From Thermoplasmata archaeon (GTDB lineage: Archaea; Thermoplasmatota; Thermoplasmata; RBG-16-68-12), in contig DASPZJ010000050.1 in NCBI GenBank assembly GCA_035636315.1, positions 34,831-98,830 on the forward strand: DNA of 64,000 nucleotides, in the 5' to 3' direction. The notes beneath the pieces are model-generated. The model did not search any database, had not been told where the DNA came from, and worked only from the letters and a program-made list of their open reading frames with translations. Position 1 is the first letter of the stretch. The number at the start of each line of letters is the position of its first letter. The position numbers and the translations under genes are program-made. Below, in pieces: positions 3,211 to 25,508 of the stretch.

Positions 3211-3519
3211 ATGGAATATGTCTACGGGGCGTTGGTCCTGCACGCGGCCGGCAAGCCGGTGAGCGAGGAGAACCTGAAGAAGGTCCTCACGGCCGCCGGT
3301 GTGAAGGTCGATGAGACGCGTGTGAAGGCCCTGACCGCCGCGCTGGAGGGCGTCAACATCGACGAGGCTCTGAAGGCCGCCGTCGCGATGCCTGCCGCCG
3401 CTCCGGTTGCCGCGCCCGCCGCGGAGAAGAAGGACGAGAAGAAGAAAGAAGAGAAGAAGGAAGAGGAGAAAGTCTCCGAGGAAGAAGCGGCCGCGGGACT
3501 CGGTGCGCTCTTCGGCTAG
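3211..3519 (+). CDS. rpl12: 50S ribosomal protein L12 (P1 stalk protein)
   Basis: [54 protein letters not shown]...[23 protein letters not shown]. Canonical archaeal L12 with Ala/Pro hinge and acidic tail. GGAGGTGA RBS 7 nt upstream of the ATG at 3211. Confidence 0.9.
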
Positions 3520-3572
3520 GCCGAAGGCCACCGTCGGTCCCAATCGGCGAGCGTGAGCGCGGGTGCTCGATC

Positions 3573-3893
3573 TCAGGCCGCGCCTTTCTTCGCGGCCGCC
3601 TGCGCGCGCTTGCCTCGTTCCTTCGCGGTGTAGCCCGTCGCCTTCTCGAGGAACCCGTTGAAGGCCTTGATCGTGTCCGTCGCGACGTGGTCCGGTACGC
3701 CGGGTTTCATCGTCGTATCGACGAAGAGCCGCTTGCCGTCGGTCCAGGCCACGAGTTTCTCGAGGGCGCCGTACGAGACGATCACCTTGCCGCCGTCCGT
3801 CCCCGCGTCCCCGAACTCGCCGATGGCGATCCGGTGCAGGCCGTCGCCTTCGAGCTCCTTCGCAACGCCTCGACGCAGCTCGTAGTCGCGCAT
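3573..3893 (-). CDS. hypothetical protein (106 aa)
   Basis: Clean ORF with non-repetitive composition (RIAIGEFGDAGTDGGKVIVSYGALEKLVAWTDGKRLFVDTTMKPG...). I recognise no family. Confidence 0.35.
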   Translation of the reverse strand: MRDYELRRGVAKELEGDGLHRIAIGEFGDAGTDGGKVIVSYGALEKLVAWTDGKRLFVDTTMKPGVPDHVATDTIKAFNGFLEKATGYTAKERGKRAQAAAKKGAA

Positions 3894-3926
3894 CGGGGTG
3901 ATGGAGCTTCGCGGGTCGTATGAACG

Positions 3927-4943
3927 TTACGCCTCGAGAATCGCAAGCGGATCGGCCGGCGTGAGCATGAACGCCTGCGCGTCCCGATACGCGCGCCAGA
4001 CGTCCTGGCAGGAGCACGAAAGGTCCCGGAAGTCGCGTCGCAGGCCGAGGGAGAACTCCTCGATCGCCTTCACGACGGCGCGGTCGCAGGAACGGCAGTT
4101 GTGGGCTCCGCGGGCCATCCCGCCCGCTGTCGGATGGCTCTTCACGTGCGCCTTCAGATCCTGCGTACGCTCCAGGACCTCGACGACGGACCACAGCCAT
4201 GGGGGCCGGTACTCGCCCCGCCGGAACAAACGGTCGACGATCGTTCGGCTCTGCACGTTGACCGGGTTGAAGGAGATCGTGTCGCTCTGCGCGTCCGCGT
4301 CGTGGCCGGATCGGACCGCGTCGTCGATCGCCTCCGATTCCGTGAGGAAGGGGGGCTTGATGAGCAGGTACGTCTTGATCGTCGCGCCGGCATCGCGCGC
4401 GAGCGCGGCCGCCCGCGCGTGTTCCTTGAGACCCCACACCTTGTTGACGGCATGCTTTAGCACGCGCTCGTCCGTCGACTCGAGGCCGAGGGCGATCTCC
4501 AGCTCATCGACGAAGCCCAGGGCGTGCTCCAACTGGTCCTTGCGCAGCAGGTGGGAGAGCGTCTCGACGATCACCTTGTCGCAGCGATCCCCGAGCTCCC
4601 TCAAGATCCGCGCGCGGACATCTGGCGGCACTTCGTGATCGTCGAAGAAGTTCCCCGAGGTGTACACCTTCACCATCGGCTGGCTCTCGTGCTTCCGAAG
4701 GACGACGTCGAGCTGGTGCAGCATATCCGCCGGCGCGACCTCCTGTGCGACGTCGTTCACATAGCCGCACATCGAGCATCCACTCGCCCGCGCCCAGTAG
4801 CAGCCCCGGGTGCGGAAGATGATGACCCAGGCGTCGACGACCTTCCCATGAAGGAGGTCTTTCTCCGTCCACGTCGAGATGTACTCCCTCGGGTCGAACT
4901 CCCGCGGACGTCGCTCGTCCTTCACGGCTTCTTGGAGGCGCAT
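3927..4943 (-). CDS. radical SAM superfamily protein, archaeal TIGR01210-like (possible archaeosine-pathway RaSEA-type enzyme)
   Basis: ORF 3927..5075. First 44 aa are low-complexity, so the start is probably M at 4943 (MRLQEAVKDE...). Contains RTRGCYWARASGCSMCGY (Cys triad with CX7CX2C spacing). Family assignment is from recollection of archaeal radical SAM families and is tentative. Confidence 0.5.
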   Translation of the reverse strand: MRLQEAVKDERRPREFDPREYISTWTEKDLLHGKVVDAWVIIFRTRGCYWARASGCSMCGYVNDVAQEVAPADMLHQLDVVLRKHESQPMVKVYTSGNFFDDHEVPPDVRARILRELGDRCDKVIVETLSHLLRKDQLEHALGFVDELEIALGLESTDERVLKHAVNKVWGLKEHARAAALARDAGATIKTYLLIKPPFLTESEAIDDAVRSGHDADAQSDTISFNPVNVQSRTIVDRLFRRGEYRPPWLWSVVEVLERTQDLKAHVKSHPTAGGMARGAHNCRSCDRAVVKAIEEFSLGLRRDFRDLSCSCQDVWRAYRDAQAFMLTPADPLAILEA

Positions 4944-4986: not shown

Positions 4987-6420
4987 TCACCGACGGTCCC
5001 GGACGGACGAGAGGCCAAGGATCGCTCCCCCGGCCACGAAGACGAACGCGAAGAAACGCAAGCCCCATGCGACATCGGGGGTGAGGACGACGCCCGTCTT
5101 GAACGTCAAGACCGCCGGGAGGTCAACCAGGGCCTCGTAGAGGACGAACAGCACGAGGCCGAGCGCGGCCAGTCCGATTCCGCTCCCCGGGCTTCGATGC
5201 CGATGCACCACCACGGCGGCGGGCTGGTAGACGGCGGGCCGGACCGCTCGTTCCGCCGTCACGGTCGCGGCGACCGGCATCGCCGCCCGTGCCGGCCGCG
5301 GGAGGTCCGCGGGTGCGTATCGACGGCACGAGTCGCACCACCATCGTTCGTATCGATCGATCCAGCGAAGGGTCGCGCCGCAGTTGGGGCAGGCGTTCTT
5401 CGCGCGCGCGACGGGCGAGTACGCACGGCAGGAGTAGCAATACCAGCGGTTGTACTGGGGGATGTAGGTGAGCTCGCGGCTGCATGTGGGGCACGGGTGC
5501 TCGACCTTCGGAATCTCGCGGACGGTGGGCGTCTCTTGGACGATGACCACGGGCTCCGCCGGACGGGCCGTCTCGGAGACCGGGGTTTCGACGATGACTT
5601 CCGGAGCGGCGGTCGTCACGGGAGCAACGGGCTCGGGGCTCTCTTCCGCGGCCGTCTCGATCGGTTCCTCCTGGGACGGTTCCTCCGACACCGGCGATTC
5701 GAAGACCAGATCGGACTCCTCGGCGACTTGGGGGATTTGCTCCGGGGCTTCGATCTCGGATTCCACGGTCGGCTCGTCCTCGGGATGGACTTCTTCCTCC
5801 ACTTCCTTTGACTCCGGCTCGAGTTCGTCGAGATAGCTCAGGAGTCTTCCACGGAGCTGCTCCTTCGTCCCGGTCGGGTCGAGTCCGTACGCCTTGCACA
5901 GCTCGATGAGCACGGGCTTCTTCGCTTGCCAGATCGACCTTCGCACCAGGGGTGGTTTTGATGAGGCCTCTCCGTCTGTCGGGACCTCCTCCGCTGTCGG
6001 CTCCGCAGGTGCCGAGGAAGGCTCCGTCGCGGGCTCGGTCGCAGGCTCCGGAGCGGGCTCGGTCGGTCCTTCGCTGGTCGTTTCGAGGACCGCACGCGGG
6101 ACTTCCTCAGGCTTCGAAGGCTCCTGGACAACGGCCTGATCGGACGGGTCGGCTTCAACCGCGGGCGCGATAACGGCTGGGTCGGGTTCCTGCTTCTCGG
6201 CCACCACTTCTTCGGGAGGGTAGGCGTTGCATCGGTAGCAGTAGTATCGTTCGTACGCCACGATGTACGACAGGACGCCGCCGCACGTGGGGCACGCCTT
6301 CGCACCGCGATCCCCGTACCCCTCGGGCGCGTACCGACCGCACGAGTAGCAATAGTACCGGTTGTACTGCTCGAGGAACGAGGTCTCGCTACCGCAGTTT
6401 GGACAAGGAAGGCCCGTCAA
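4987..6420 (-). CDS. membrane-anchored protein with four tandem zinc-ribbon modules, a SAP-like motif, Pro/Glu-rich linkers and C-terminal TM helices
   Basis: Four repeats of the form CP(N/T)CG...Y(I/L)xxY(N/E)R(Y/W)YCYxCxxY(A/S/P)P at residues ~5, ~42, ~303 and ~340. Contains KPVLIELCKAYGLDPTGTKEQLRGRLLSYL (SAP-like). Long Pro/Glu/Thr-rich acidic segments. C-terminal hydrophobic helices (GIGLAALGLVLFVLY..., FFAFVFVAGGAILGL). Confidence 0.6.
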   Translation of the reverse strand: MTGLPCPNCGSETSFLEQYNRYYCYSCGRYAPEGYGDRGAKACPTCGGVLSYIVAYERYYCYRCNAYPPEEVVAEKQEPDPAVIAPAVEADPSDQAVVQEPSKPEEVPRAVLETTSEGPTEPAPEPATEPATEPSSAPAEPTAEEVPTDGEASSKPPLVRRSIWQAKKPVLIELCKAYGLDPTGTKEQLRGRLLSYLDELEPESKEVEEEVHPEDEPTVESEIEAPEQIPQVAEESDLVFESPVSEEPSQEEPIETAAEESPEPVAPVTTAAPEVIVETPVSETARPAEPVVIVQETPTVREIPKVEHPCPTCSRELTYIPQYNRWYCYSCRAYSPVARAKNACPNCGATLRWIDRYERWWCDSCRRYAPADLPRPARAAMPVAATVTAERAVRPAVYQPAAVVVHRHRSPGSGIGLAALGLVLFVLYEALVDLPAVLTFKTGVVLTPDVAWGLRFFAFVFVAGGAILGLSSVRDRR

Positions 6421-6552: not shown

Positions 6553-6625
6553 GCCACCATAGCTCAGTCGGTAGAGCAGCCGCCTTGTAAGCGGCAGGTC
6601 GGGAGTTCAATTCTCCCTGGTGGCT
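6553..6625 (+). tRNA. tRNA-Thr (anticodon UGU)
   Basis: Manual fold: acceptor GCCACCA/TGGTGGC; D-arm GCTC-AGTCGGTAG-AGC; anticodon stem GCCGC/GCGGC with loop CTTGTAA (anticodon TGT); variable loop AGGTC; T-arm GGGAG-TTCAATT-CTCCC; discriminator T. No encoded CCA. Falls inside the spurious ORF 6427..7080. Confidence 0.85.
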
Positions 6626-7089
6626 TCCGACTTCCGTTCATCATGGAAGCCTCTTGCGCCCTCCCGTTCGAGCAGGAATCCCGCCTTGTTGCGGCTCCGG
6701 GGGATCTCCTCGAAGGTGACGTCGAGTTGCGCGGCCAGCGATTTGGACTCCGAGTTCAGGGCCCGAAGGTGGTCCGCCTTGACGCGGTAGCGCCCCTTCA
6801 TCTGTCGGATGACCAGCTGCGAGTCCCCATGGATCGCGTAGGCTCCTCTCCGGCCGGTCTCCGATTCGATCTCGCGAAGCCTTCGCAAAAGGGAGATCAG
6901 GCCGGCGTACTCCGCGATGTTGTTGCTCCTCAGGGGCCCCCTAGCGGTATCGAGATCCGGCACATCCCTCACATGTTCGTGCCCGCCGATGACGTAGGCA
7001 GCCCGCATCGGTCCTTTCTTCTCGAGCTGATTCCCGGGACACGCTCCGTCGAAGAAACATTCGGTGCGGACGGAGTGTGACAGCGCCAT
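6607..7089 (-). CDS. rnhA: ribonuclease HI (RNase H type 1)
   Basis: MALSHSVRTECFFDGACPGNQ...AYVIGG...NNIAEYAGLISLLRRLREIE...IHGDSQLVIRQMKGRYRVKADHLRAL...VTFEEIPRSRNKAGF. Carries the DGA...E...D...N catalytic pattern of RNase H1. Stop overlaps the 3' end of tRNA-Thr on the opposite strand by ~18 nt. Confidence 0.7.
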   Translation of the reverse strand: MALSHSVRTECFFDGACPGNQLEKKGPMRAAYVIGGHEHVRDVPDLDTARGPLRSNNIAEYAGLISLLRRLREIESETGRRGAYAIHGDSQLVIRQMKGRYRVKADHLRALNSESKSLAAQLDVTFEEIPRSRNKAGFLLEREGARGFHDERKSEATREN

Positions 7090-7498
7090 TCGGCATTGGC
7101 GGTACACTGCCTCGCACTTTGAGACTTCCTTTGCCGTGCGCCGGATTCCTGTGTCTGACTCCGCCGTCCGATAATCGCGCGAAAAGTGTTACGTACCTCG
7201 TCTTGTCGTATACCGTCTCGGCCGGTTGCGATGCGCCTGTTCCGCTCTCGTCGGTCAAAGATTGCCTCCGAAGGCGAGCCGGATCCTCATCGGATCCTCA
7301 CCGAGTACGTCCTGCACATGTCGATCACGTGCCTCGGCGACGAGGACGTGACGCCCCTCTATGAGGAGTACATCAAAGACTCGCGGCTCGGTCGATCGGA
7401 GCGTGAGGAGCTGACCCAGGTCTACCGCAGCCTCCTGCCGAGGTCGTCGTCCGGGCTCTCGGCGCGGTAGAGCGTTTCGTCCACCTGCGGTCCGCGTC

Positions 7499-7621
7499 TC
7501 AGCAGCACGCTTGGCTGACGTCGCGCGTCTCAGCAGAGCCCGCGCAGCATCCGCAGCCGCAGCAGCAGGGCCCGCAGCAGCAACAGGTGGTCGCATCAGA
7601 GGTCTTCGGTTGTGCGTTCAT
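7499..7621 (-). CDS. 40-aa cysteine-rich peptide (12 Cys) encoded by a GCA/TGC trinucleotide repeat
   Basis: Minus-strand ATG at 7621 preceded by GGGGGAG 8 nt upstream. Translation MNAQPKTSDATTCCCCGPCCCGCGCCAGSAETRDVSQACC, stop TGA. Coding status uncertain because the DNA is a (GCAGCA)n-type repeat. Not in the ORF track as a discrete ORF. Confidence 0.35.
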   Translation of the reverse strand: MNAQPKTSDATTCCCCGPCCCGCGCCAGSAETRDVSQACC

Positions 7622-7653
7622 GTTAGCTACTCCCCCAGAGTAGTAGTCAAGTT

Positions 7654-7662
7654 CATATACTC
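7654..7662. promoter_or_regulatory. TATA-like element (TTCATATAC) in the 60-bp divergent intergenic region between the Cys-rich peptide and the TrmB regulator
   Basis: Only AT-rich stretch between ATG(-) 7621 and ATG(+) 7683. Lies ~25 nt upstream of the + strand start, consistent with a leaderless archaeal promoter. Confidence 0.35.
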
Positions 7663-7682
7663 TCCCTACCTCCGCCTCCCAG

Positions 7683-8468
7683 ATGGCAGAAGCCCGCCTG
7701 CGCGCGAATGCGCTACTGCAGGAAGCGCTGGGTCCCGCGCTGGAGCGGGTCGGAGGCACGCTGCGTGACCTCGGCCTCAGCGGGAACGCGGCGAAGGTGT
7801 TCTGCGCCCTCGTGCGGACGAGCCGCGGGACCGCGAGCGAGTTGGTCTTGAAGACGGGCATCCCGGATTCGAAGATCTACTACGCGCTCGACGAACTCGC
7901 GGAAAAAGGCCTGGTCGAAGTTCAGGACGGGAAGCCGAAAGTGTATCGAGTCGTCACTCCAAAAGAAGTCGAAATCCGCCTCGCCCGGATCGCCGAGGAG
8001 GACTATGAGCGCCGCCGCGCGTCGACGGCCCGCTTGCGGTCGATCCTCGAGCCTCTCGGTGTCGCGACCGCGTCGCCCGCCACGGATATCGCCTATATCG
8101 TCAAGGGGCTGCCCAACGTCGTCTCCCGCGCGCGAGGACTGATTTCCTCCGCGCGGAAGGAGATCGTCTTGCTGGCCTCGGACGAGTCGCTCTTCCGGAA
8201 ACTGGAGGGCGATTTGGTCAAGGCGACGAAGCGTCGCGTGCGTCTCAAGCTCGCGCTTCCGGCCATCCCCGTCGAGAAAGAACTGGAAAAGGTCGCCGAT
8301 GTCCGCTCGATCGTCTGCGACTGCATGCTACTCGTGGTCGACGGCCAGCAGGTCCTGACGGTGACCCGCACATCCGACGCCGAAGCGTACGCGATCACGT
8401 CGACGGACCGGACCCTCGTCCGCATGGGTCTTGAGTACTGGGAGAGCCCCCGTTGCTGCGCGGTGTGA
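7683..8468 (+). CDS. TrmB-family transcriptional regulator
   Basis: N-terminal wHTH (AKVFCALVRTSRGTASELVLKTGIPDSKIYYALDELAEKGLVEVQDGKPKVYRVV) followed by a TrmB-type C-terminal domain. 261 aa. Confidence 0.7.
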   Translation: MAEARLRANALLQEALGPALERVGGTLRDLGLSGNAAKVFCALVRTSRGTASELVLKTGIPDSKIYYALDELAEKGLVEVQDGKPKVYRVVTPKEVEIRLARIAEEDYERRRASTARLRSILEPLGVATASPATDIAYIVKGLPNVVSRARGLISSARKEIVLLASDESLFRKLEGDLVKATKRRVRLKLALPAIPVEKELEKVADVRSIVCDCMLLVVDGQQVLTVTRTSDAEAYAITSTDRTLVRMGLEYWESPRCCAV

Positions 8469-8655: not shown

Positions 8656-9042
8656 ATGCTTCAGCCCCAGGAATTGGTCGTCGCCAAGCTCCTGCCGACG
8701 ATCCGTGCGCGTCTCGCCCTCGAGCTCCTTCAAACCTATAAGATGAAGCAGGTCGACGTCGCTCGCTCGATGGCGATCACCCAGGCGGCCGTCAGCCACT
8801 ACAATACGCAGAGCCGCGGAGTTGACCAAGAGATGCTCCGACTGTTCCCGGAAATCAAGCCGTTCGTCCACGGGCTCGCCGAGCGGATTGCGCACGGCAT
8901 GACCCTGTCCGACCAGATCGCGAGCGTCAACGGGTTTTGTTCCGGCCTCATGCTGACCGCTCGTTTCTGCGAGTACCACAAGAGCCTCGGGGACATCGAC
9001 CCGCACTGCACGGCGTGCTTTCCGTCCCCGCCGAGACCCTAG
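8656..9042 (+). CDS. HTH (XRE/Cro-like) transcriptional regulator with C-terminal Cys cluster
   Basis: QVDVARSMAITQAAVSHYNTQSRG is a helix-turn-helix signature. C-terminus has CSGLMLTARFCEYH...DPHCTAC. A palindrome ACGGTTAAATACCGT (8597-8611) lies upstream. Confidence 0.5.
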   Translation: MLQPQELVVAKLLPTIRARLALELLQTYKMKQVDVARSMAITQAAVSHYNTQSRGVDQEMLRLFPEIKPFVHGLAERIAHGMTLSDQIASVNGFCSGLMLTARFCEYHKSLGDIDPHCTACFPSPPRP

Positions 9043-19082: not shown

Positions 19083-19949
19083 GTGCGCAAAATCCGGAGC
19101 GGAATCTATGGACTCAACCCGCTCCTCGACGGCGGCCTGAATGAGAACAGCACGACTGTCGTGATCGGCCGGTCGGGCGCGGGCAAGACGACCTTGGCCA
19201 CGCAGTTCATCCGCCGAGGCCTGCAGGAAGGCCAAGAGGGCGTCTTCGTCTCTCTCGACGAAAACAAGGAACAGATCATCCGTGAGGCCGTCGAGATGGG
19301 CTGGTCGGACATCCTCGAGTACCTCGACGACGAGCTTCTCGTGTTCATCGACGCGTCGGGTCGGGAGTTCTCGAACTTCATCCGCAAGGAGCTCCCCGCG
19401 TTCGTCGCGGACTGGAAGGGGAGCAACGCGCGCATCGCGATCGACCCGCTCACGCCGGTCCTCTGGTCGACGAAGGACCTGTACGAGCAACGCGACCTGA
19501 TTGGCTACATGTTCAAGCAGACGCGGAAAGTCGGGACGGTCCTCTGCACGCTCGAGGAACACGGACAGGCGGACCTCGCCGGCCCGGAGACCGTCATCCC
19601 GATGTACCTCGCGGACTGCGTGATCCACTTGAAGTTCAACAGCGACGGCGCGGACCCGTCGCGCCTACTGAAGATCGTGAAGTGCCGGAACAGCCGCCAC
19701 AGCCAAGGGGCCCATGCCTACGAGATCGTCCGCGGCCTCGGGATCGTCCTCGAGGATGTCGACGGCCGCAAGCCCACGACCTCCAAGGCCCCGTCGCAGC
19801 TGCGGCAGATGCTCCTTACCCGCTCGATGCCGAAGAACGTGAGGGACCATCTCGAGAAGTCTCTCGACGGGCTCACGGACGAGGACTTCCGCTCCTTGAA
19901 GCCCGAGCGTGTGCTCGAGATGATCCTCCAGGAGTACCAGGGGGCGTGA
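19083..19949 (+). CDS. KaiC-like / RecA-superfamily ATPase (single-domain, archaeal KaiC/RadB family)
   Basis: IRSGIYGLNPLLDGGL (KaiC N-motif), Walker A GRSGAGKTT, Walker B LVFIDASG. Confidence 0.75.
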   Translation: MRKIRSGIYGLNPLLDGGLNENSTTVVIGRSGAGKTTLATQFIRRGLQEGQEGVFVSLDENKEQIIREAVEMGWSDILEYLDDELLVFIDASGREFSNFIRKELPAFVADWKGSNARIAIDPLTPVLWSTKDLYEQRDLIGYMFKQTRKVGTVLCTLEEHGQADLAGPETVIPMYLADCVIHLKFNSDGADPSRLLKIVKCRNSRHSQGAHAYEIVRGLGIVLEDVDGRKPTTSKAPSQLRQMLLTRSMPKNVRDHLEKSLDGLTDEDFRSLKPERVLEMILQEYQGA

Positions 19950-19950
19950 G

Positions 19951-20643
19951 ATGGCGCGCGGTCTCGGTCGCGCGCTCGAGCAGGCGGTCGCCCGGGACGG
20001 GCCGGACGAGGACCTCGAGATCGAGGGACGCAGCCTCGCGAACGCGCGCCGCCGCCAGATGTTCCGCTATCTCTGCCGCAAGCCGTGCGCTCGGGTCGGC
20101 GAGATCGGGCGGGAGCTCGCGATGTCCCAGGCCACAGTGCGGTGGCATGCGTGGGATCTCGTGGAGAACGGATACGTGCAAATCGAGGGCACCCGGGCGT
20201 TCCCGAAAGGCCTGATCGATCCGGAGGATGCGGCGATGTTCGCGTCCCTCGCGTCGTCGGGCCGAGCCGCCATTCTTGAGGCCGTATTCCGGCAACCGGG
20301 GCTCTCGTTTCAGGAGCTCGCCGCTGCGCTCAGTTTGACGCGGCAGTCCGTGAGCAAGATTGCCTCGGAGCTCGCGGACTTCGGGCTGCTCACCCTCGTC
20401 GACGACGGTCGGTACCGCCGCGTGTATCCGACGGACCTGATCCCGCGGAAACGCGAATCGAACCGGGCCCGGTCGAACGCCTTTGCGGACGGCCTGCTGC
20501 GCCGGCTCACCGAAGAAGGCCTCTCGCCCGAGCTCCTGCGGCGGGACGAGACGACGGTCCTCGTGCGGTTCGGCAGCGGTTCCAAGAAGGTCGTCCTCGA
20601 CGTCACGCTCGACCCGTACGCCACGGCGTGGAAAGGTCCCTGA
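19951..20643 (+). CDS. transcriptional regulator with two ArsR/MarR-like winged-helix domains
   Basis: RRRQMFRYLCRKPCARVGEIGRELAMSQATVRWHAWDLVENGYV and a second wHTH AAILEAVFRQPGLSFQELAAALSLTRQSVSKIASELADFGLLT. Start is 2 nt after the KaiC-like gene. Confidence 0.6.
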   Translation: MARGLGRALEQAVARDGPDEDLEIEGRSLANARRRQMFRYLCRKPCARVGEIGRELAMSQATVRWHAWDLVENGYVQIEGTRAFPKGLIDPEDAAMFASLASSGRAAILEAVFRQPGLSFQELAAALSLTRQSVSKIASELADFGLLTLVDDGRYRRVYPTDLIPRKRESNRARSNAFADGLLRRLTEEGLSPELLRRDETTVLVRFGSGSKKVVLDVTLDPYATAWKGP

Positions 20644-20727: not shown

Positions 20728-23700
20728 ATGGACGAGAGCTATCGCGAGTGGCTATCCTCGATCCCCGGATGGACCGCGGACAAGGCGCAGAAGGTCGGGG
20801 AACGCTTCCCCACGTACGAGCTGCTGCGCGCGGCGAGCCGCGACGAGCTCTCGGCGATCGAAGGCCTCACGTCGGGCGAGGCGGACGCCCTATTCGGCCT
20901 GGTGCATGGCACCTCCGAGGGCGATGCGTCCGGCCATCTGTTCCTGTGCCCGGAATGCGGCTCCTTCGCTGGCGCGGGCGCGACGAAGTGCCCGTCGTGC
21001 GGCGTCGAATTCGGCGGCTCCGAAGATATCGCCGTCGGGAAGGAGCTCGACGCCTTCCTCGAGGACGAGGACGCGCCCGCTCGTATCTGTCTCTCGTGCG
21101 GCGCCGCGATGGCGAAAGGGGACGCGACCTGCGGCGTGTGCGGCCGCGAATATCGTAGGGAGGAACTCGCCCTCCTGCCCGGGCTCGATGGGAGCCTCGA
21201 CGAGGAAGCTCCGTTCTGCCCCCGCTGCGGGGCGTATCTCTTCGCGGACGAATCGGAGTGCGCGATCTGCGGCACGGCCCTGAACGCTCCAACGCCCCCG
21301 GTCACGAACGGGAAGGAGAAGGGCGTCGTGAAGGACTTCCTCAGCCGGTGGCAGCGGGTCGCGGACGCCACGGAGACCACGGAGGCGGAGCGGCTCCAGG
21401 AAGAGCTCGATCATTACGATCGGTTGCTGGAGGCGGACCCGACACTCGAGCGGGCGTGGGCGAAGCGCGCGAAGGTCCTCGAGAAACTCGGACGCCCCGC
21501 GGAGGCGGCGGAGTCCCTCGCGAAGGCCGGAGAGCTGAACCCGGCGCGCGAGGACCAGTACCGCGTCGAGGTCCAGGACGTGACGCGGACGAAGGAGGAC
21601 GTGCCCGTCCTGTCGCCGAAATGGCAGCAGCCCGTCGCGACGGCCGCGCCGAAAGCGCTCGATCCCCGACTCATCGAAGCGCTCGATCACTACGAATCCC
21701 TGTTGCGGGCGGACCCATCCCTCGCGGTCGCATGGCGCACGAAGGGCGAGATCCTGGAGCGACTCGGCCGCTCGGACGAATCGCGCGTCGCCCGCGAGCG
21801 AGCGGACCGGCTCGAACGCGACGAGGGTCGCGCCCTCCAGGCCGCCGCGGAAGGACTCCGGGCGCCGGGCCTCGCGTCCTCGGACCTCGCGGGCGGCGGC
21901 CGCATGAACGGCCGCGTCAGCGGCACGAAAGGGGGTCACACGAACGGCCGCACCAACGGCCACACGAACGGCCGCACGAACGGACGCGTGAACGGCCTGT
22001 CGGAGGGCCGCGTCAACGGCCTGACGACCGGCGCGGTGAACGGCCTAACGTTCGGGCACGGGGCGACGAACGGCCTCGTGAACGGGAACGGCTTCACGAA
22101 CGGCCGGCGGGGCCGCTACGGCACCCCGCGGATTCCGGCGCAGCCGCACTGGTCCCACTCCGTCGTGGGAATCGCCGCGGTCGTCGCCCTCATGGTGATC
22201 GTCCCGATCCTCGTGAGCTTCCTTTCTCCGTCCCCCGCCGGGCCGACCTCGATCATCCGGATCGACGGGGATTTCAGCGACTGGTCCAGGTTCCCGGCGT
22301 ACGCGGACTCGCCGACGGACGCGGTCCAGACGCCCGATGTCAACCTCGTCGCCATGAAGGTCGCGACGCAGGACCGGAACCTGTTCGTCGAGGCGCAGGT
22401 TCAGGGCCTCTTGTTCCAGGGCCCCGCCGCAAACCAGACGGGCAGCGTGTTCGTCTTCGTCGACGAAGACAACGACCGCACGACCGGGTACCCGATCGGC
22501 GACCTCGGCGCGGATTCCATGGTCGAGGTGTACGGATGGCGAGATGTGTCCGCGATCCAGCACGGCGTCTCGGCGTTCGCATTCAACGAGACGGGGGTGA
22601 CGCGCTCGAACGACTTCCGGCGGTTCCTGCCTAGCGGCTCCGCGGACGCCGCGTTCCTCGGCTCGCAGATCGAAATCCGAACGACCGTCCGGGATGCGAC
22701 GAGGGCGCGGGTCCTCGTCTACGCGGCGGACAACCTTGGCGGCCGGGACGCGGCGGATGGCTCCGTGCGTCCTTCCCTCCCGACGGTCGTCCTGGGCCAG
22801 CAGACGGTCGCGCCCGACATCGTCACGACGCCCCGGGCGGTCGTCCTGCGAGTGACGCTCGCGCCGCTCGGAGGCGCGCCCCATGTCACCGGGTTGAACC
22901 TCACGCGGGTGGGCGATTCGGCGGACCCGGTTGATGTGGCCCTGTATCGCGATGACGGGAGCGGCGCGCTCGATCCGGCGGATGCGTTCCTCTCGAACGC
23001 GTCGATGACCGCGAACGCCGTCAGCCTCGCGATGAACGAGAATCTCGCTGGGCCGGCGGTGTACTGGGTCGAAGCACGGTGGACGAACGTCACGCCGACG
23101 ACGACGTTCGGATTGACGGTGAGCGGAGTTGGCTCGAACGGCACCGCGAGCTTCCGAGCCCCCGAGACCGGGCTGGTCTACCTTGCTGCGGCACCGTCGA
23201 CGCTGAGAGTCGACGGCGCGTTCGGCGATTGGCGCGGTCAGATGTACGGTCAGGATCTCCTCGGCGACGTCACGAACCGAAGCGGCGCGACGGAATACGA
23301 CGCGAACGTGGACTTGCTCGCGACCGCAGTGAACGTGGCGGCGAACTTCACCGGATACGTTCGGGTGGACGGCCGCATGCTCGGAGGCCAAGACATCCCG
23401 ACCTCCCGCGAGCGGACGTACAATGCGCCCGTCGACACGGACCTCGACGGCGTGCCGGATTCGATCGAGACCCTCCTCGGCGCGGGCCTGTCCCAAGACT
23501 TCAACAACGACAACCGCACCGACGCGATGTCCGCGGGCGACGTGGACGGGGACGGCGTCATCGATTATCCCGCGGGCACCGACTGCTGGTTGAACACGAC
23601 GATCCCGGCATGGTATCCCGCGCCCTATGCGGGCCGAAGCGTGACGCGATTCATCTGCCCGATCGGACAGCCTCCCCAGGAGGGCGTGGACGTCGTGTAC

Positions 23701-25278
23701 GCGTACGTCGACGCCGACAACGCGACGAGCACCGGGCTCCTGTCCGACGTCGAAGGCCGGACGTACGGCTTCGACTACGCGATGGCGGTCATCGGTAGGA
23801 ACGGAGCGGTCAACTCGAGCGGCCTCTATGCCTTCGTGCCGGCTCGAGCGAACCCCTGGGCCCTCGTGCAGCCGATCGCCGTCGCGCTCGACGCGCATCG
23901 GATGGAATTCGCGGTGGACGCGAGCGCGCTGAACCTGGTCGCCGGGTACCGGGTCGTCTACTTCGCGTCGGACTGGCGGCTCGGATACGATGTCGCCCTG
24001 CCGGACGCCGCCGTCGCCCGCTTCCCGATCGCCGCGCAGGCCGCGACGAATCTCGTCATCAACGAGGTCTCGCCCCAGCCGAACGTGGAATGGGCGGAGA
24101 TCGCGAACCCGACGGCGAGCGCGGTCCCCCTGAACGGTTGGACCCTCGCAATCAACCACGGAAACAAGGCCGTCGTCGTCTACACGTTCTCCGGGACGAT
24201 CGGTGCCTGGGGATCCGGGCAGGAGTACCTCGCGGCCTTCTTGCCCGCGAACTCGCTCCCGAACGGCCAGACTCAATTGCTCCTCATGCAAGGGACCACG
24301 GTGATCGATGCGACAACGTACTCGTCGAACTCGGGCAGCGGCCGCACGTGGGCGCGGTTCAAGGACCCTGTGTCAGGCGTCCCTGCAGATACGAACAACG
24401 ATGCGGTGGACTTCTACCTCTCCTTGGCGCCCTCGTCCGGTCGCGCGAACGACCGCCACCGGCCGACGATCGCCCTCGCGAAGACCGCGAGCCGGGTCGT
24501 TGCGGCGCCGGGGGATCTCATCGTCTACACGTTGTATTACAACAACACGGACACGGGCATGGCGAAGTTCGTGTGGGTGAACGACACGCTCCCGGCGGGC
24601 GTTAGTTTTTCCTCGTCGAGCGTGCCGTACAATTCCGTCTCCGGTTCGACGTACGGGTGGGCCTTCACGAACGTGATGCCCGGCGCCCACGCCTTCACGG
24701 TCTCGGTACAGGTCACTGCCGCCACGGCGGATGGACAGGTGCTCCGCAACACGGCGACGTTGGATTACACGGATCAGCTGCGCCGGCCCCTTCCCCGGAG
24801 TCTCGGATGGGGGAACACGACCGTCGTACGACCGATGATCACGGTCGTCAAGATCGCCACGCCGTCGAACGCGAAACCGGGCGACCTGGTCACCTTCACG
24901 ATTTTCTACAACAACACGGGCTCCGTGGCGGCGGGAACGGTCACGATCAAGGACAGTTTCCCGAGCGGACTCGACTACGTCAGCGCGAGCCCGGCGGCAA
25001 CGTGGACGGACGGCCGGACGTTCTACTGGAACTTCACGAGCGTCGCACCGGGCGCCCATTCCCTCACGTTGATCGCGCGGGTGAACGCCAGCTTCTCGGG
25101 ATCGCAACTCGTCAACTGGGCGTTCCTGAATTACACGACGCCCGGAGGATTCCCGCTGATCGGGAGCAGTTCCTCGACGGTGGTGGCGATCCCGGAGCTC
25201 TCGGATATGATCTTCGTCGCGGCGGTCCCGTTGCTCATCATCGGGCTGAAAATCCGCGCGAAGCGGCGCGTCGAATAG
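20728..25278 (+). CDS. giant single-pass membrane protein: cytoplasmic HhH + 3 double-Zn-ribbons + TPR + (x-T/V-N-G)n repeat, TM, ~1000-aa extracellular domain with DUF11-like repeats, C-terminal PEF-CTERM-like anchor
   Basis: 1516 aa. N-terminal LSSIPGWTADKAQKVGERFPTYELLRAASRDELSAIEGLTSGEADAL (HhH-like). CPECGSF...CPSCGVEF, CLSCGAAM...CGVCGREY and CPRCGAYL...CAICGTAL are zinc ribbons. TPR-like helical repeats (ERAWAKRAKVLEKLGRPAEAAESLAKAGELNP...). NGRVSGTKGGHTNGRTNGHTNGRTNGRVNGL... repeat. TM helix SVVGIAAVVALMVIVPILVSFL. Many N-x-S/T sequons. C-terminal domains of the form ...YTLYYNNTDTG... and ...FTIFYNNTGSVAAGTVTIKD... (DUF11 / conserved-repeat-domain-like). Ends AIPELSDMIFVAAVPLLIIGLKIRAKRRVE (tripeptide + TM + basic tail). 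Confidence 0.8.
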   Translation: MDESYREWLSSIPGWTADKAQKVGERFPTYELLRAASRDELSAIEGLTSGEADALFGLVHGTSEGDASGHLFLCPECGSFAGAGATKCPSCGVEFGGSEDIAVGKELDAFLEDEDAPARICLSCGAAMAKGDATCGVCGREYRREELALLPGLDGSLDEEAPFCPRCGAYLFADESECAICGTALNAPTPPVTNGKEKGVVKDFLSRWQRVADATETTEAERLQEELDHYDRLLEADPTLERAWAKRAKVLEKLGRPAEAAESLAKAGELNPAREDQYRVEVQDVTRTKEDVPVLSPKWQQPVATAAPKALDPRLIEALDHYESLLRADPSLAVAWRTKGEILERLGRSDESRVARERADRLERDEGRALQAAAEGLRAPGLASSDLAGGGRMNGRVSGTKGGHTNGRTNGHTNGRTNGRVNGLSEGRVNGLTTGAVNGLTFGHGATNGLVNGNGFTNGRRGRYGTPRIPAQPHWSHSVVGIAAVVALMVIVPILVSFLSPSPAGPTSIIRIDGDFSDWSRFPAYADSPTDAVQTPDVNLVAMKVATQDRNLFVEAQVQGLLFQGPAANQTGSVFVFVDEDNDRTTGYPIGDLGADSMVEVYGWRDVSAIQHGVSAFAFNETGVTRSNDFRRFLPSGSADAAFLGSQIEIRTTVRDATRARVLVYAADNLGGRDAADGSVRPSLPTVVLGQQTVAPDIVTTPRAVVLRVTLAPLGGAPHVTGLNLTRVGDSADPVDVALYRDDGSGALDPADAFLSNASMTANAVSLAMNENLAGPAVYWVEARWTNVTPTTTFGLTVSGVGSNGTASFRAPETGLVYLAAAPSTLRVDGAFGDWRGQMYGQDLLGDVTNRSGATEYDANVDLLATAVNVAANFTGYVRVDGRMLGGQDIPTSRERTYNAPVDTDLDGVPDSIETLLGAGLSQDFNNDNRTDAMSAGDVDGDGVIDYPAGTDCWLNTTIPAWYPAPYAGRSVTRFICPIGQPPQEGVDVVYAYVDADNATSTGLLSDVEGRTYGFDYAMAVIGRNGAVNSSGLYAFVPARANPWALVQPIAVALDAHRMEFAVDASALNLVAGYRVVYFASDWRLGYDVALPDAAVARFPIAAQAATNLVINEVSPQPNVEWAEIANPTASAVPLNGWTLAINHGNKAVVVYTFSGTIGAWGSGQEYLAAFLPANSLPNGQTQLLLMQGTTVIDATTYSSNSGSGRTWARFKDPVSGVPADTNNDAVDFYLSLAPSSGRANDRHRPTIALAKTASRVVAAPGDLIVYTLYYNNTDTGMAKFVWVNDTLPAGVSFSSSSVPYNSVSGSTYGWAFTNVMPGAHAFTVSVQVTAATADGQVLRNTATLDYTDQLRRPLPRSLGWGNTTVVRPMITVVKIATPSNAKPGDLVTFTIFYNNTGSVAAGTVTIKDSFPSGLDYVSASPAATWTDGRTFYWNFTSVAPGAHSLTLIARVNASFSGSQLVNWAFLNYTTPGGFPLIGSSSSTVVAIPELSDMIFVAAVPLLIIGLKIRAKRRVE
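21904..22105 (+). repeat. tandem 12-nt repeat (consensus ACGAACGGCCGC) encoding the x-T/V-N-G peptide repeat
   Basis: ~16 imperfect units visible in sequence 21904-22105, inside the 20728..25278 CDS. Confidence 0.7.
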
Positions 25279-25367: not shown

Positions 25368-25508
25368 GTCGCCGGCCCAAGCCCTCCTCAAAGGAGGGCA
25401 GGCTTCCCACGGGCTCGCGCACCGTAGTACCGCAGGGAACGTGGGCGGGCTTAACTTCCGGGTTCGGGATGGGACCGGGTGTATCCCCGCCGCTTTGGCC
25501 GTCAAACC
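25368..25508 (-). rRNA. 5S ribosomal RNA (with an apparent ~20-nt 3'-proximal hairpin insertion; ends approximate)
   Basis: Minus strand reads TTTGACGGCCAAAGCGGCGGGGATACACCCGGTCCCATCCCGAACCCGGAAGTTAAGCCCGCCCACGTTCCCTGCGGTACTACGGTGCGCGAGCCCGTGGGAAGCC. This matches the archaeal 5S consensus (CCCATCCCGAAC, GGAAGTTAAGCCC, GTGCGCGAGCC, TGGGAA). It is followed by a perfect hairpin GCCCTCCTttgAGGAGGGC and GGGCCGGCGACC. A TATA-like GATATATC lies ~30 nt upstream on the minus strand (25536-25543). Confidence 0.75.

Follow-up and report, generated by a model that had tools for sequence, protein, structure and literature searches.

A cysteine-packed mini-gene divergent from a TrmB-family regulator in Thermoplasmata and its possible part in an archaeal metalloid response

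A 64,000-nucleotide stretch of the genome of a Thermoplasmata archaeon (contig DASPZJ010000050.1, positions 34,831 to 98,830; hereafter the window) contains a cysteine-rich open reading frame (ORF) of only 40 codons that faces away from a gene encoding a TrmB-family regulator. Is this ORF a gene at all, and if so, what could a product consisting so largely of thiols be doing beside such a regulator? Comparison with related loci indicates that the ORF is very probably a real gene under selection, and that it sits at the position where sister lineages carry a putative arsenite methyltransferase gene, arsM, behind the same promoter and operator. We discuss below how far this supports a metalloid-inducible, metallothionein-like peptide, and how other explanations fare against the same evidence.

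The mini-gene (7499..7621, minus strand; ATG at 7621..7619, TGA at 7501..7499) encodes MNAQPKTSDATTCCCCGPCCCGCGCCAGSAETRDVSQACC, a peptide of 40 amino acids with 12 cysteines (30%) and not a single aromatic residue or histidine. Its cysteine core, residues 13-26 (CCCCGPCCCGCGCC; 7544..7585, minus strand), is spelled TGT TGC TGC TGC GGG CCC TGC TGC TGC GGC TGC GGA TGC TGC in the codon listing. A further Cys pair at residues 39-40 (7502..7507, minus strand) ends the peptide; this pair is specific to the window clade and locus L038, and each of the 15 window-clade contigs has it, as do L038/L088. The density of 10 cysteines per 20-residue stretch reached by the peptide gene is unique across the six frames of the window, where the runner-up, at 7 per 20 residues, lies in the antisense frame of a real gene, and 30 first-order Markov simulations of 64 kb produced maxima of only 4-6. 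The original prediction of a minus-strand peptide of 40 amino acids and 12 cysteines, divergent from a TrmB-family gene, is thus borne out by the sequence and by Pfam.

A tract of this composition invites the reading that it is a non-coding (CAG/CTG)n microsatellite, or a phase-variable repeat whose slippage toggles expression, both of which had been put forward from the sequence. The description as a trinucleotide repeat holds loosely, in that Tandem Repeats Finder reports a period-3 array of 14.3 copies, but with only 62% matches and a score of 30, the minimum, and with (GCA)3, found twice, as the longest perfect trinucleotide run; TGT codons break the runs. Such an array is not simply a microsatellite. 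Moreover, slippage cannot toggle the frame, because the repeat unit is itself a trinucleotide.

More telling is the behaviour of the tract in relatives. From collections of genomes and metagenomes, we retrieved 156 loci with a gene related to that of the regulator and inspected the divergent side of each. A small Cys-rich ORF is present in 39 contigs of Thermoplasmata (the window counted), which amount to 28 distinct genes and 26 distinct peptides, and its start codon always lies 61-63 nt from the regulator ATG. These peptides have 30-40 amino acids and 6-12 cysteines (for example, MEPSRPSDAPQERAAEEPKARGCCSGGCCCACCGCCG and MSPKEPTDEGRNADACCGPGCCGGAPCCSACCC), average 24.6% Cys, and contain only 5 aromatic or His residues among 1066 when the 28 distinct genes are pooled. 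All follow one design, in which a polar Pro/Ser/Glu-rich N-terminus is followed by CC-x2-4-CC units, with the CC spacing recurring in every member.

The loss of the reading frame in relatives, through indels that are not multiples of three, had been named beforehand as grounds for abandoning a coding role. Instead, the Cys frame is stop-free in 28/28 distinct genes, with a mean of 9.4 Cys compared with 0.25-1.1 in the other five frames, and gaps in codon-naive nucleotide alignments measure 3, 6, 9, 12, 18 or 21 nt without exception; because all gaps are multiples of three and the frame remains open, the coding interpretation stands. Cysteine positions are kept through TGT/TGC swaps while other residues change. 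Across the family, Cys is encoded 102 times by TGC and 23 times by TGT, with synonymous swaps even between close relatives (L006/L008, L014/L015), and between the window and L038, 39 of 123 nucleotides differ, yet 11 of the 12 cysteines align with cysteine, one of them through such a swap. The cysteines are still conserved in relatives whose regulators are only 56% identical and whose DNA at the locus has diverged.

Among 13 contigs of the window clade (regulator identity 93-98%), the alleles show substitutions and single-codon changes, and none is frameshifted. The first Cys run varies there by whole codons, as CCCC, CCC or SCC, which points to occasional slippage by one unit and is, together with the period-3 array, what speaks for a repeat; no out-of-frame allele was found among the relatives. 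The non-coding repeat is therefore effectively refuted, and the pattern of conservation makes it very probable that the 40-codon ORF is a genuine, selected gene. Three longer ORFs over the same DNA were considered and rejected. The 120-amino-acid minus-strand ORF 7499..7861 is not a conserved unit, because relatives have stop codons directly upstream of the mini-gene ATG. A plus-strand poly-Ala ORF (7511-7768) and a minus-strand ORF of 113 amino acids (7255-7596) cross the promoter or a convergent conserved gene and have no family matches.

Homology searches place the peptide outside catalogued families. No homologue was found among 5.8 billion protein clusters, whether the query was the single sequence or a 13-member alignment. 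A phmmer search of 1.84 billion representatives returned only one related match, P0121, which is an over-extended antisense ORF of a close relative; two other matches are unrelated repetitive proteins and were discarded. Pfam and NCBIfam gave no match at E <= 0.1, including to the metallothionein families and the prokaryotic SmtA type, and an Rfam scan of the whole window found only tRNA-Thr and 5S rRNA, with nothing at the mini-gene locus. The gap that holds the mini-gene carries no gene call in three public assemblies with an identical regulator. By composition, on the other hand, the earlier label 'metallothionein-like' is apt: the peptides are of low mass, very rich in cysteine (25-30%) in CC, CxC or CxxC motifs, and almost devoid of aromatic residues and histidine.

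The same prediction had offered a second identity, the precursor of a ribosomally synthesized and post-translationally modified peptide (RiPP) whose Cys core is modified by a maturase, for example into thioethers or thiazoles. The small size and the succession of a polar 'leader' and a Cys-rich 'core' would suit this, but the genomic setting does not: nearby lie an RNase H-like gene, a small ORF, the regulator, a helix-turn-helix-like protein and glycosyltransferases, and no cyclodehydratase, lanthipeptide synthetase, radical S-adenosylmethionine (SAM)/SPASM enzyme, protease or exporter is adjacent, either in the window or in the syntenic loci examined. The nearest radical-SAM gene (48.5-51.2 kb in the window) is 41 kb from the mini-gene, the peptide has no SCIFF/ranthipeptide (TIGR03973) or other NCBIfam or Pfam match, and the gene takes the place of arsM instead of joining a biosynthetic cluster. 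A RiPP precursor is accordingly very improbable.

What, then, controls the mini-gene? The spacer between it and the TrmB-family gene is 61 nt long. An imperfect palindrome, CTACTAC-N6-GGAGTAG in minus-strand reading (7627..7646), lies 5 nt upstream of the peptide ATG and is a candidate operator for the regulator; it departs by one mismatch (GGAGTAG) from CTACTAC-N6-GTAGTAG and is the sole match in the window, against 0.09 expected by chance. The GGGGGAG-8nt-ATG arrangement previously taken as a ribosome-binding site is present as described, but this 'Shine-Dalgarno' sits inside the operator palindrome. A single TATA-like element (7652..7659; TTCATATA on the plus and TATATGAA on the minus strand) separates the divergent start codons; in 81 distinct intergenic sequences, the columns reading GTAT(A/T)T(G/A)A show 70-90% conservation. 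Adjoining the TATA element, on its upstream side with respect to the peptide gene, lies a purine-rich block (AGGTAGGGAGAG; 7660..7671, minus strand; consensus AGGnAGGGAG) that is similarly 70-90% conserved and that resembles, in presumed function as well, a transcription factor B recognition element (BRE).

This order of purine-rich block, TATA, CTACTAC-N6-GTAGTAG, approximately 5 nt and the ATG of either arsM or the peptide gene is kept in approximately 110 loci; the proposed layout of a regulator and its target around one shared TATA element is therefore conserved in more than 100 related loci. Archaeal TATA boxes usually lie near -26, and from the TATA geometry the regulator mRNA would be leaderless, while the peptide mRNA would have a 5' untranslated region of approximately 8 nt. 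That the peptide gene is controlled through the palindrome is likely on these grounds. Operators of loci in the peptide state share a derived right half-site, GAAGTAG or GGAGTAG (versus GTAGTAG), and a purine-rich spacer, and their promoters read TATATGAAC in place of the TATTTAAnG of arsM loci. Such shared changes could mean that the peptide cassettes have a common origin, or that signals for regulation or translation have been altered.

The regulator itself (7683..8468, plus strand; 261 amino acids) has a TrmBL2-like architecture according to Pfam and its predicted fold. It matches PF01978 (E 1.3e-17, 63.8 bits) and PF11495 (E 6.8e-12, 45.6 bits), both above gathering thresholds, and combines the N-terminal winged helix with the C-terminal (PLD-like) domain that define the TrmB family. 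Its AlphaFold model (predicted local distance difference test score, 80.5) is closest in Foldseek to TrmBL2 (5BQT, E 3e-17), with TrmB also found (3QPH, E 2e-11). The TrmB, TrmBL1 and TrmBL2 equivalogs are not matched (34.7-48 bits against NCBIfam cut-offs of 500-650), and neither is the ArsR/SmtB profile NF033788 (16 bits against a cut-off of 55; E 0.0078). The Thermococcales proteins TrmB, TrmBL1 and TrmBL2, which are sugar-responsive or chromatin-type, share with the present system the Pfam domains, the fold and a palindromic operator beside the TATA box; what sets the regulator here apart is its conserved Cys triad and its linkage to arsM, not to sugar genes.

All of the 44 Thermoplasmata sequences compared carry this triad, C212, C258 and C259, as do 30-32 of the 33 homologues found in Bathyarchaeia, Nitrososphaerota and Asgard archaea. 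The C-termini of these distant homologues do not match the search pattern that contained Cys, so that it was evidently the pattern DSKIYYAL that retrieved them, and the conservation of the triad is therefore not an artefact of the search. As(III)-sensing ArsR proteins use a Cys triad with a vicinal pair on a flexible C-terminal tail, and the three conserved cysteines here likewise include a vicinal pair near the C-terminus, although the two kinds of protein have no sequence or fold relationship, the present regulator being TrmBL2/TrmB-like. The regulator is thus a candidate metalloid sensor, and a response to a metalloid is, on conserved residues and gene linkage, slightly favoured. Literature searches for TrmB with arsM or arsenite returned no report of a TrmB-family arsenic regulator, and those that combined arsM with archaeal Cys-rich or metallothionein proteins, or with Thermoplasmata, likewise brought up nothing of relevance.

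The linkage comes from the relatives. At most orthologous Thermoplasmata loci, an ArsM-family methyltransferase gene of approximately 240 codons begins at the same distance of 61-63 nt from the regulator and is preceded by the same TATA element and CTACTAC-N6-GTAGTAG palindrome. Orthology of the loci follows from their neighbours, which match those of the window: the RNase H-like gene, the small conserved ORF and, downstream of the regulator, the gene for a 128-amino-acid protein. The gene is a putative arsenite methyltransferase, with a family match (NF008823, E 1.6e-69) that is below cut-off, tblastn matches in 49 loci and, as in the L005 protein, an N-terminal CC motif, SNCVINL and DCGC. 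Since the promoter and operator of the mini-gene are those of arsM in sister lineages, the peptide may be tied to arsenic or metalloid biology. Beyond Thermoplasmata, regulator homologues of Bathyarchaeia, Nitrososphaerota and Asgard archaea (L044-L076) also adjoin arsM, often as a divergent operon that encodes an AhpD/CMD-like protein of 100 amino acids, ArsM, and a flavin reductase or nitroreductase (L051:2061-3882, L069:2717-3874, L056:1741-3919), an arrangement suggestive of an arsM regulon that is widespread among archaea and includes a thiol-redox partner.

A second Cys-rich element accompanies arsM in Thermoplasmata. Behind 50 of 66 complete arsM genes lies an ORF of 33-37 codons (for example, VIPVETMLAKALAEELRAEGCCGSCPCCADSRCGCCA) with a Shine-Dalgarno sequence, GGAGGTGA; in most loci it begins with a GTG that shares bases with the arsM stop codon (GTGA), the classic arrangement of translational coupling, to which this mini-ORF is probably subject. 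One example is L005:3101-3214 (minus strand), and others are found in L003, L007, L012, L039 and L040. The encoded proteins, in which an amphipathic N-terminus (LAKALAEELR) precedes the Cys pattern CC-x3-4-CC-x3-4-C(C)xC(C), form an unannotated family that has no Pfam or NCBIfam match; scans of this mini-ORF and of two small neighbouring genes against both collections gave nothing usable. The ArsM of L039 (approximately 3339-3937, minus strand) lacks the N-terminal Cys motif, beginning MEPELARIP, and keeps the coupled Cys mini-ORF, so separation of Cys modules from the enzyme does occur.

Such pairings raise the alternative that the window peptide is an accessory thiol partner, a detached As(III)-transfer or disulfide-relay module for a methyltransferase or other thiol enzyme encoded elsewhere. 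In ArsM, the N-terminal cysteines help to handle As(III), acting as a pair in redox and transfer (PMC6138428), arsM in relatives nearly always has a small thiol protein as its companion (the mini-ORF in 50/66, or the AhpD-like protein), and the L039 locus shows the enzyme without its motif beside such a partner. The window, however, contains no arsM-like gene, and the 7-12 cysteines per peptide are far above the needs of a relay, which leaves an accessory partner unlikely.

Several loci illustrate how a Cys peptide might outlast the enzyme. In L037 and L021, the Shine-Dalgarno sequence and mini-ORF stand directly behind the operator with arsM precisely missing, the L021 version reading CCCCGGCCPGGCC. 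L121 instead has a truncated ArsM N-terminus of 60 amino acids, 52.5% identical to that of the L091 ArsM and with 7 Cys compared with 4, and an RNase H-like gene follows directly after the 60-codon remnant. These would be two clearly separate routes to the loss of arsM with retention of a Cys peptide. In the window, the peptide starts exactly at the arsM start-codon position, and the ArsM N-termini of sister lineages (L043, L013) read MNA...CCGPGCC where the window peptide reads MNAQ...CCCCGPCCC. The window peptide therefore probably derives from the N-terminal CC..CC motif of arsM or from the coupled mini-ORF, with subsequent gain of cysteines. In a neighbour-joining tree of the regulators, which is quick and not robust, arsM is ancestral and the peptide state appears in at least 3-4 clades interleaved with arsM clades, although the peptide-state promoters share the derived features described above.

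A product left over in this way need not have a function, and the mini-gene could be a relic of arsM or of the coupled ORF after a deletion, perhaps still transcribed, with its product not selected. The exact coincidence with the arsM start position and the truncation seen in L121 fit this, as does the fast evolution of non-Cys residues, with nonsynonymous changes equalling or exceeding synonymous ones in every pair. A relic would not, however, be expected to keep its start, its frame and a stop just after the Cys core in 28/28 distinct genes, nor to confine its gaps to whole codons. Furthermore, there has been a gain of cysteines over both candidate parents, of which the ArsM N-terminus has 3-4 and the coupled ORF 3-8; lineages that arose by two separate routes have converged on a polar N-terminus with a CC-rich core; and both regulator and operator are still intact. 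We consider a functionless relic improbable.

These observations may be combined in the following way. Ancestrally, the regulator and its CTACTAC-N6-GTAGTAG operator would have controlled an arsM operon, composed of arsM and the coupled Cys mini-protein in Thermoplasmata and of an AhpD-like gene and arsM in other archaeal phyla; in the window lineage, the methyltransferase would have been lost from the locus, leaving a Cys-packed mini-gene at the arsM start position. Archaeal repressors bound between the TATA box and the start codon can block polymerase recruitment, and a regulator dimer on the palindrome, which has this position, would in the absence of metalloid prevent transcription of the peptide gene. 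Binding of As(III), or of a related soft metalloid or metal, by C212, C258 and C259 in an ArsR-like S3 site would release the regulator. The peptide would then be made, and its vicinal Cys pairs would chelate As(III), so that it would act as a metallothionein-like buffer or carrier whose 12 thiols could hold up to approximately 4 As(III). The chemistry has precedents, as metallothionein binds As3+ with log K 8-10 (PMC10231319) and CCPGCC is the classic biarsenical-binding tag (PMC3665623). For the chain as a whole, a metalloid-inducible, metallothionein-like thiol peptide under a TrmB-type sensor, we see the case as evenly poised.

A number of results weigh against this interpretation. The ArsM match, at 234 bits, falls short of the curated NCBIfam cut-off of 263 bits, and no acr3, arsB or arsC was found in the window or in the loci inspected; no arsenic-resistance or peptide-maturation gene lies near the mini-gene. 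The ligand of the regulator is inferred only from gene linkage and the conserved cysteines. An hhalign comparison of the peptide with ArsM N-termini aligned only the CC..CC motif, at 45% probability, and sensitive blastn matches to the ArsM N-terminal CC and coupled-ORF Cys regions were of low complexity (E 0.005-0.3); because statistical support for either parent is weak, the origin proposed for the window clade is only probable. Finally, binding of Cu(I), Cd, Hg and Zn is to be expected of such a peptide as well.

This last point leads to a further alternative, in which the product is a metallothionein for Cu(I), Cd, Zn or Hg with no role in arsenic, the ligand of the regulator having changed in these lineages. 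Its composition is that of a classic metallothionein, and the derived half-site and purine-rich spacer indicate that the control region has diverged. Against a change of ligand, the regulator is orthologous and syntenic to those linked to arsM and has the same three cysteines, and no metal transporter or metal-homeostasis gene is adjacent. A metallothionein for other metals thus appears about as improbable as the relic. Returning to a metalloid-responsive peptide, a wider reading can be offered tentatively, as rather less than an even prospect: that these loci represent an unrecognised archaeal metalloid-response module, in which a TrmB-family As(III) sensor with a Cys212/Cys258/Cys259 site has been kept with arsM across Thermoplasmatota, Bathyarchaeia, Nitrososphaerota and Asgard archaea, and in which poly-(CC) peptides, natural 'tetracysteine' arsenic binders that would have arisen at least twice by domain shedding, from the N-terminus of ArsM and from a mini-protein coupled to arsM, replace methylation by sequestration in several soil Thermoplasmata lineages.

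The closest parallel to the arrangement is SmtA/SmtB of Synechococcus, where a bacterial metallothionein gene is divergent from the gene of a metal-sensing repressor and an operator palindrome lies in the shared intergenic region. Here too, a gene for a small Cys-rich protein is divergent from that of a putative sensor, with a palindrome between them, but the regulator belongs to the TrmB family and not to ArsR/SmtB, the host is an archaeon, and the ligand, if correctly deduced, is a metalloid; the peptide, unlike SmtA, has no His, is built from CC pairs and has no Pfam metallothionein match. In arsenic systems, ArsR As(III) sensors bind through three-cysteine S3 sites, and ArsD is a protein of approximately 120 amino acids with vicinal cysteines and a thioredoxin fold. 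Both the ArsR sensors and the ArsD metallochaperone have roles in arsenic handling (PMC6138428). The peptide resembles ArsD in its vicinal Cys pairs, the proposed As(III) ligands, and differs in having 40 amino acids and in being probably unstructured. With the N-terminal Cys motif of ArsM/AS3MT it shares the promoter and start-codon position, whereas it has no methyltransferase domain and 2-3 times more Cys.

Eukaryotic metallothioneins (PMC10231319) are similar in their low mass, 25-30% Cys and virtual lack of aromatic residues, and three-thiolate coordination of As3+ is plausible for the peptide as well. Their sequences are unrelated, however, and the archaeal peptide is half the size and dominated by CC as opposed to CxC and CxxC. 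Like the CCPGCC tag (PMC3665623), the family recurrently uses CC-x2-CC and CC-x3-CC units (CCGPCC, CCGPGCC, CCGGCC); the tag is artificial, whereas these motifs are natural and number 2-3 per peptide.

Homologues of the regulator, together with the L001 locus at 98% identity, assign the window to an uncultured Thermoplasmata archaeon from soil. The surroundings are those of an ordinary chromosome, with genes for the DNA polymerase D large subunit, RNA polymerase subunits and CDC48 as well as 5S rRNA and tRNA-Thr. Convergent with the peptide gene, the small ORF 7186-7470 (plus strand) has no family match, is called as 79 amino acids in public assemblies, has a C-terminal part (...ILTEYVLHMSITCLGDEDVTPLYEEYIKDSRLG...) that is 60-96% identical in relatives, and has been deleted along with arsM in L121. 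Downstream of the regulator, the 128-amino-acid protein (8656-9042, plus strand) has a helix-turn-helix-like N-terminus and a C-terminal Cys cluster (FCSGLMLTARFCEYHKSLGDIDPHCTAC); it belongs to no Pfam family and retains 89-92% identity even where the regulator has only 70%. The tRNA-Thr (TGT) gene (6553-6625, plus strand) adjoins the RNase H-like (RVT_3) gene (6607-7107, minus strand), whose listed GTG-start ORF overlaps it, and this pair also flanks the locus in relatives such as L121. Beyond it, a protein of 477 amino acids (4987-6420, minus strand) combines four double-zinc-ribbon units of the YNRYYCYSCGRYAP type with a SAP domain, has a long acidic linker rich in Pro and Glu, and carries a membrane segment at its C-terminus. 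Further away are a KaiC-like ATPase and a double winged-helix regulator (19083-20643, plus strand) ahead of the gene for a protein of 1516 amino acids with zinc-ribbon, TPR, lamin-tail and DUF11 domains (20728-25278, plus strand), and a stand-alone 5S rRNA gene (25386-25506, minus strand; 75 bits), whereas 16S and 23S rRNA genes are absent from the window.

That a small Cys-rich binding protein can be divergent from a metal-sensing repressor is already known in principle from SmtA/SmtB. The peptide family, its apparent birth from an enzyme Cys motif, the TrmB-type sensor and the link to arsM across archaeal phyla appear to be new. Should the wider reading of a metalloid-response module hold, the peptides would be the first family in archaea to resemble metallothioneins, and no earlier protein of the metallothionein type would have been dedicated to a metalloid. 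If the proposed mechanism is right, its predictions are directly testable with a synthetic peptide and recombinant regulator, and the natural CC-x2-3-CC repeats would be potentially useful as arsenic-binding tags, biosensors or bioremediation parts. The family would also reveal a whole class of genes of 30-40 codons that gene callers and protein databases have missed, and it would offer a compact case of small-gene birth, in which a substrate-handling motif of an enzyme is shed and amplified into a stand-alone binding peptide. For the biology of arsenic and soft metals in archaea, a sensor outside the ArsR family combined with a ribosomally made thiol-peptide effector would supply a missing piece.

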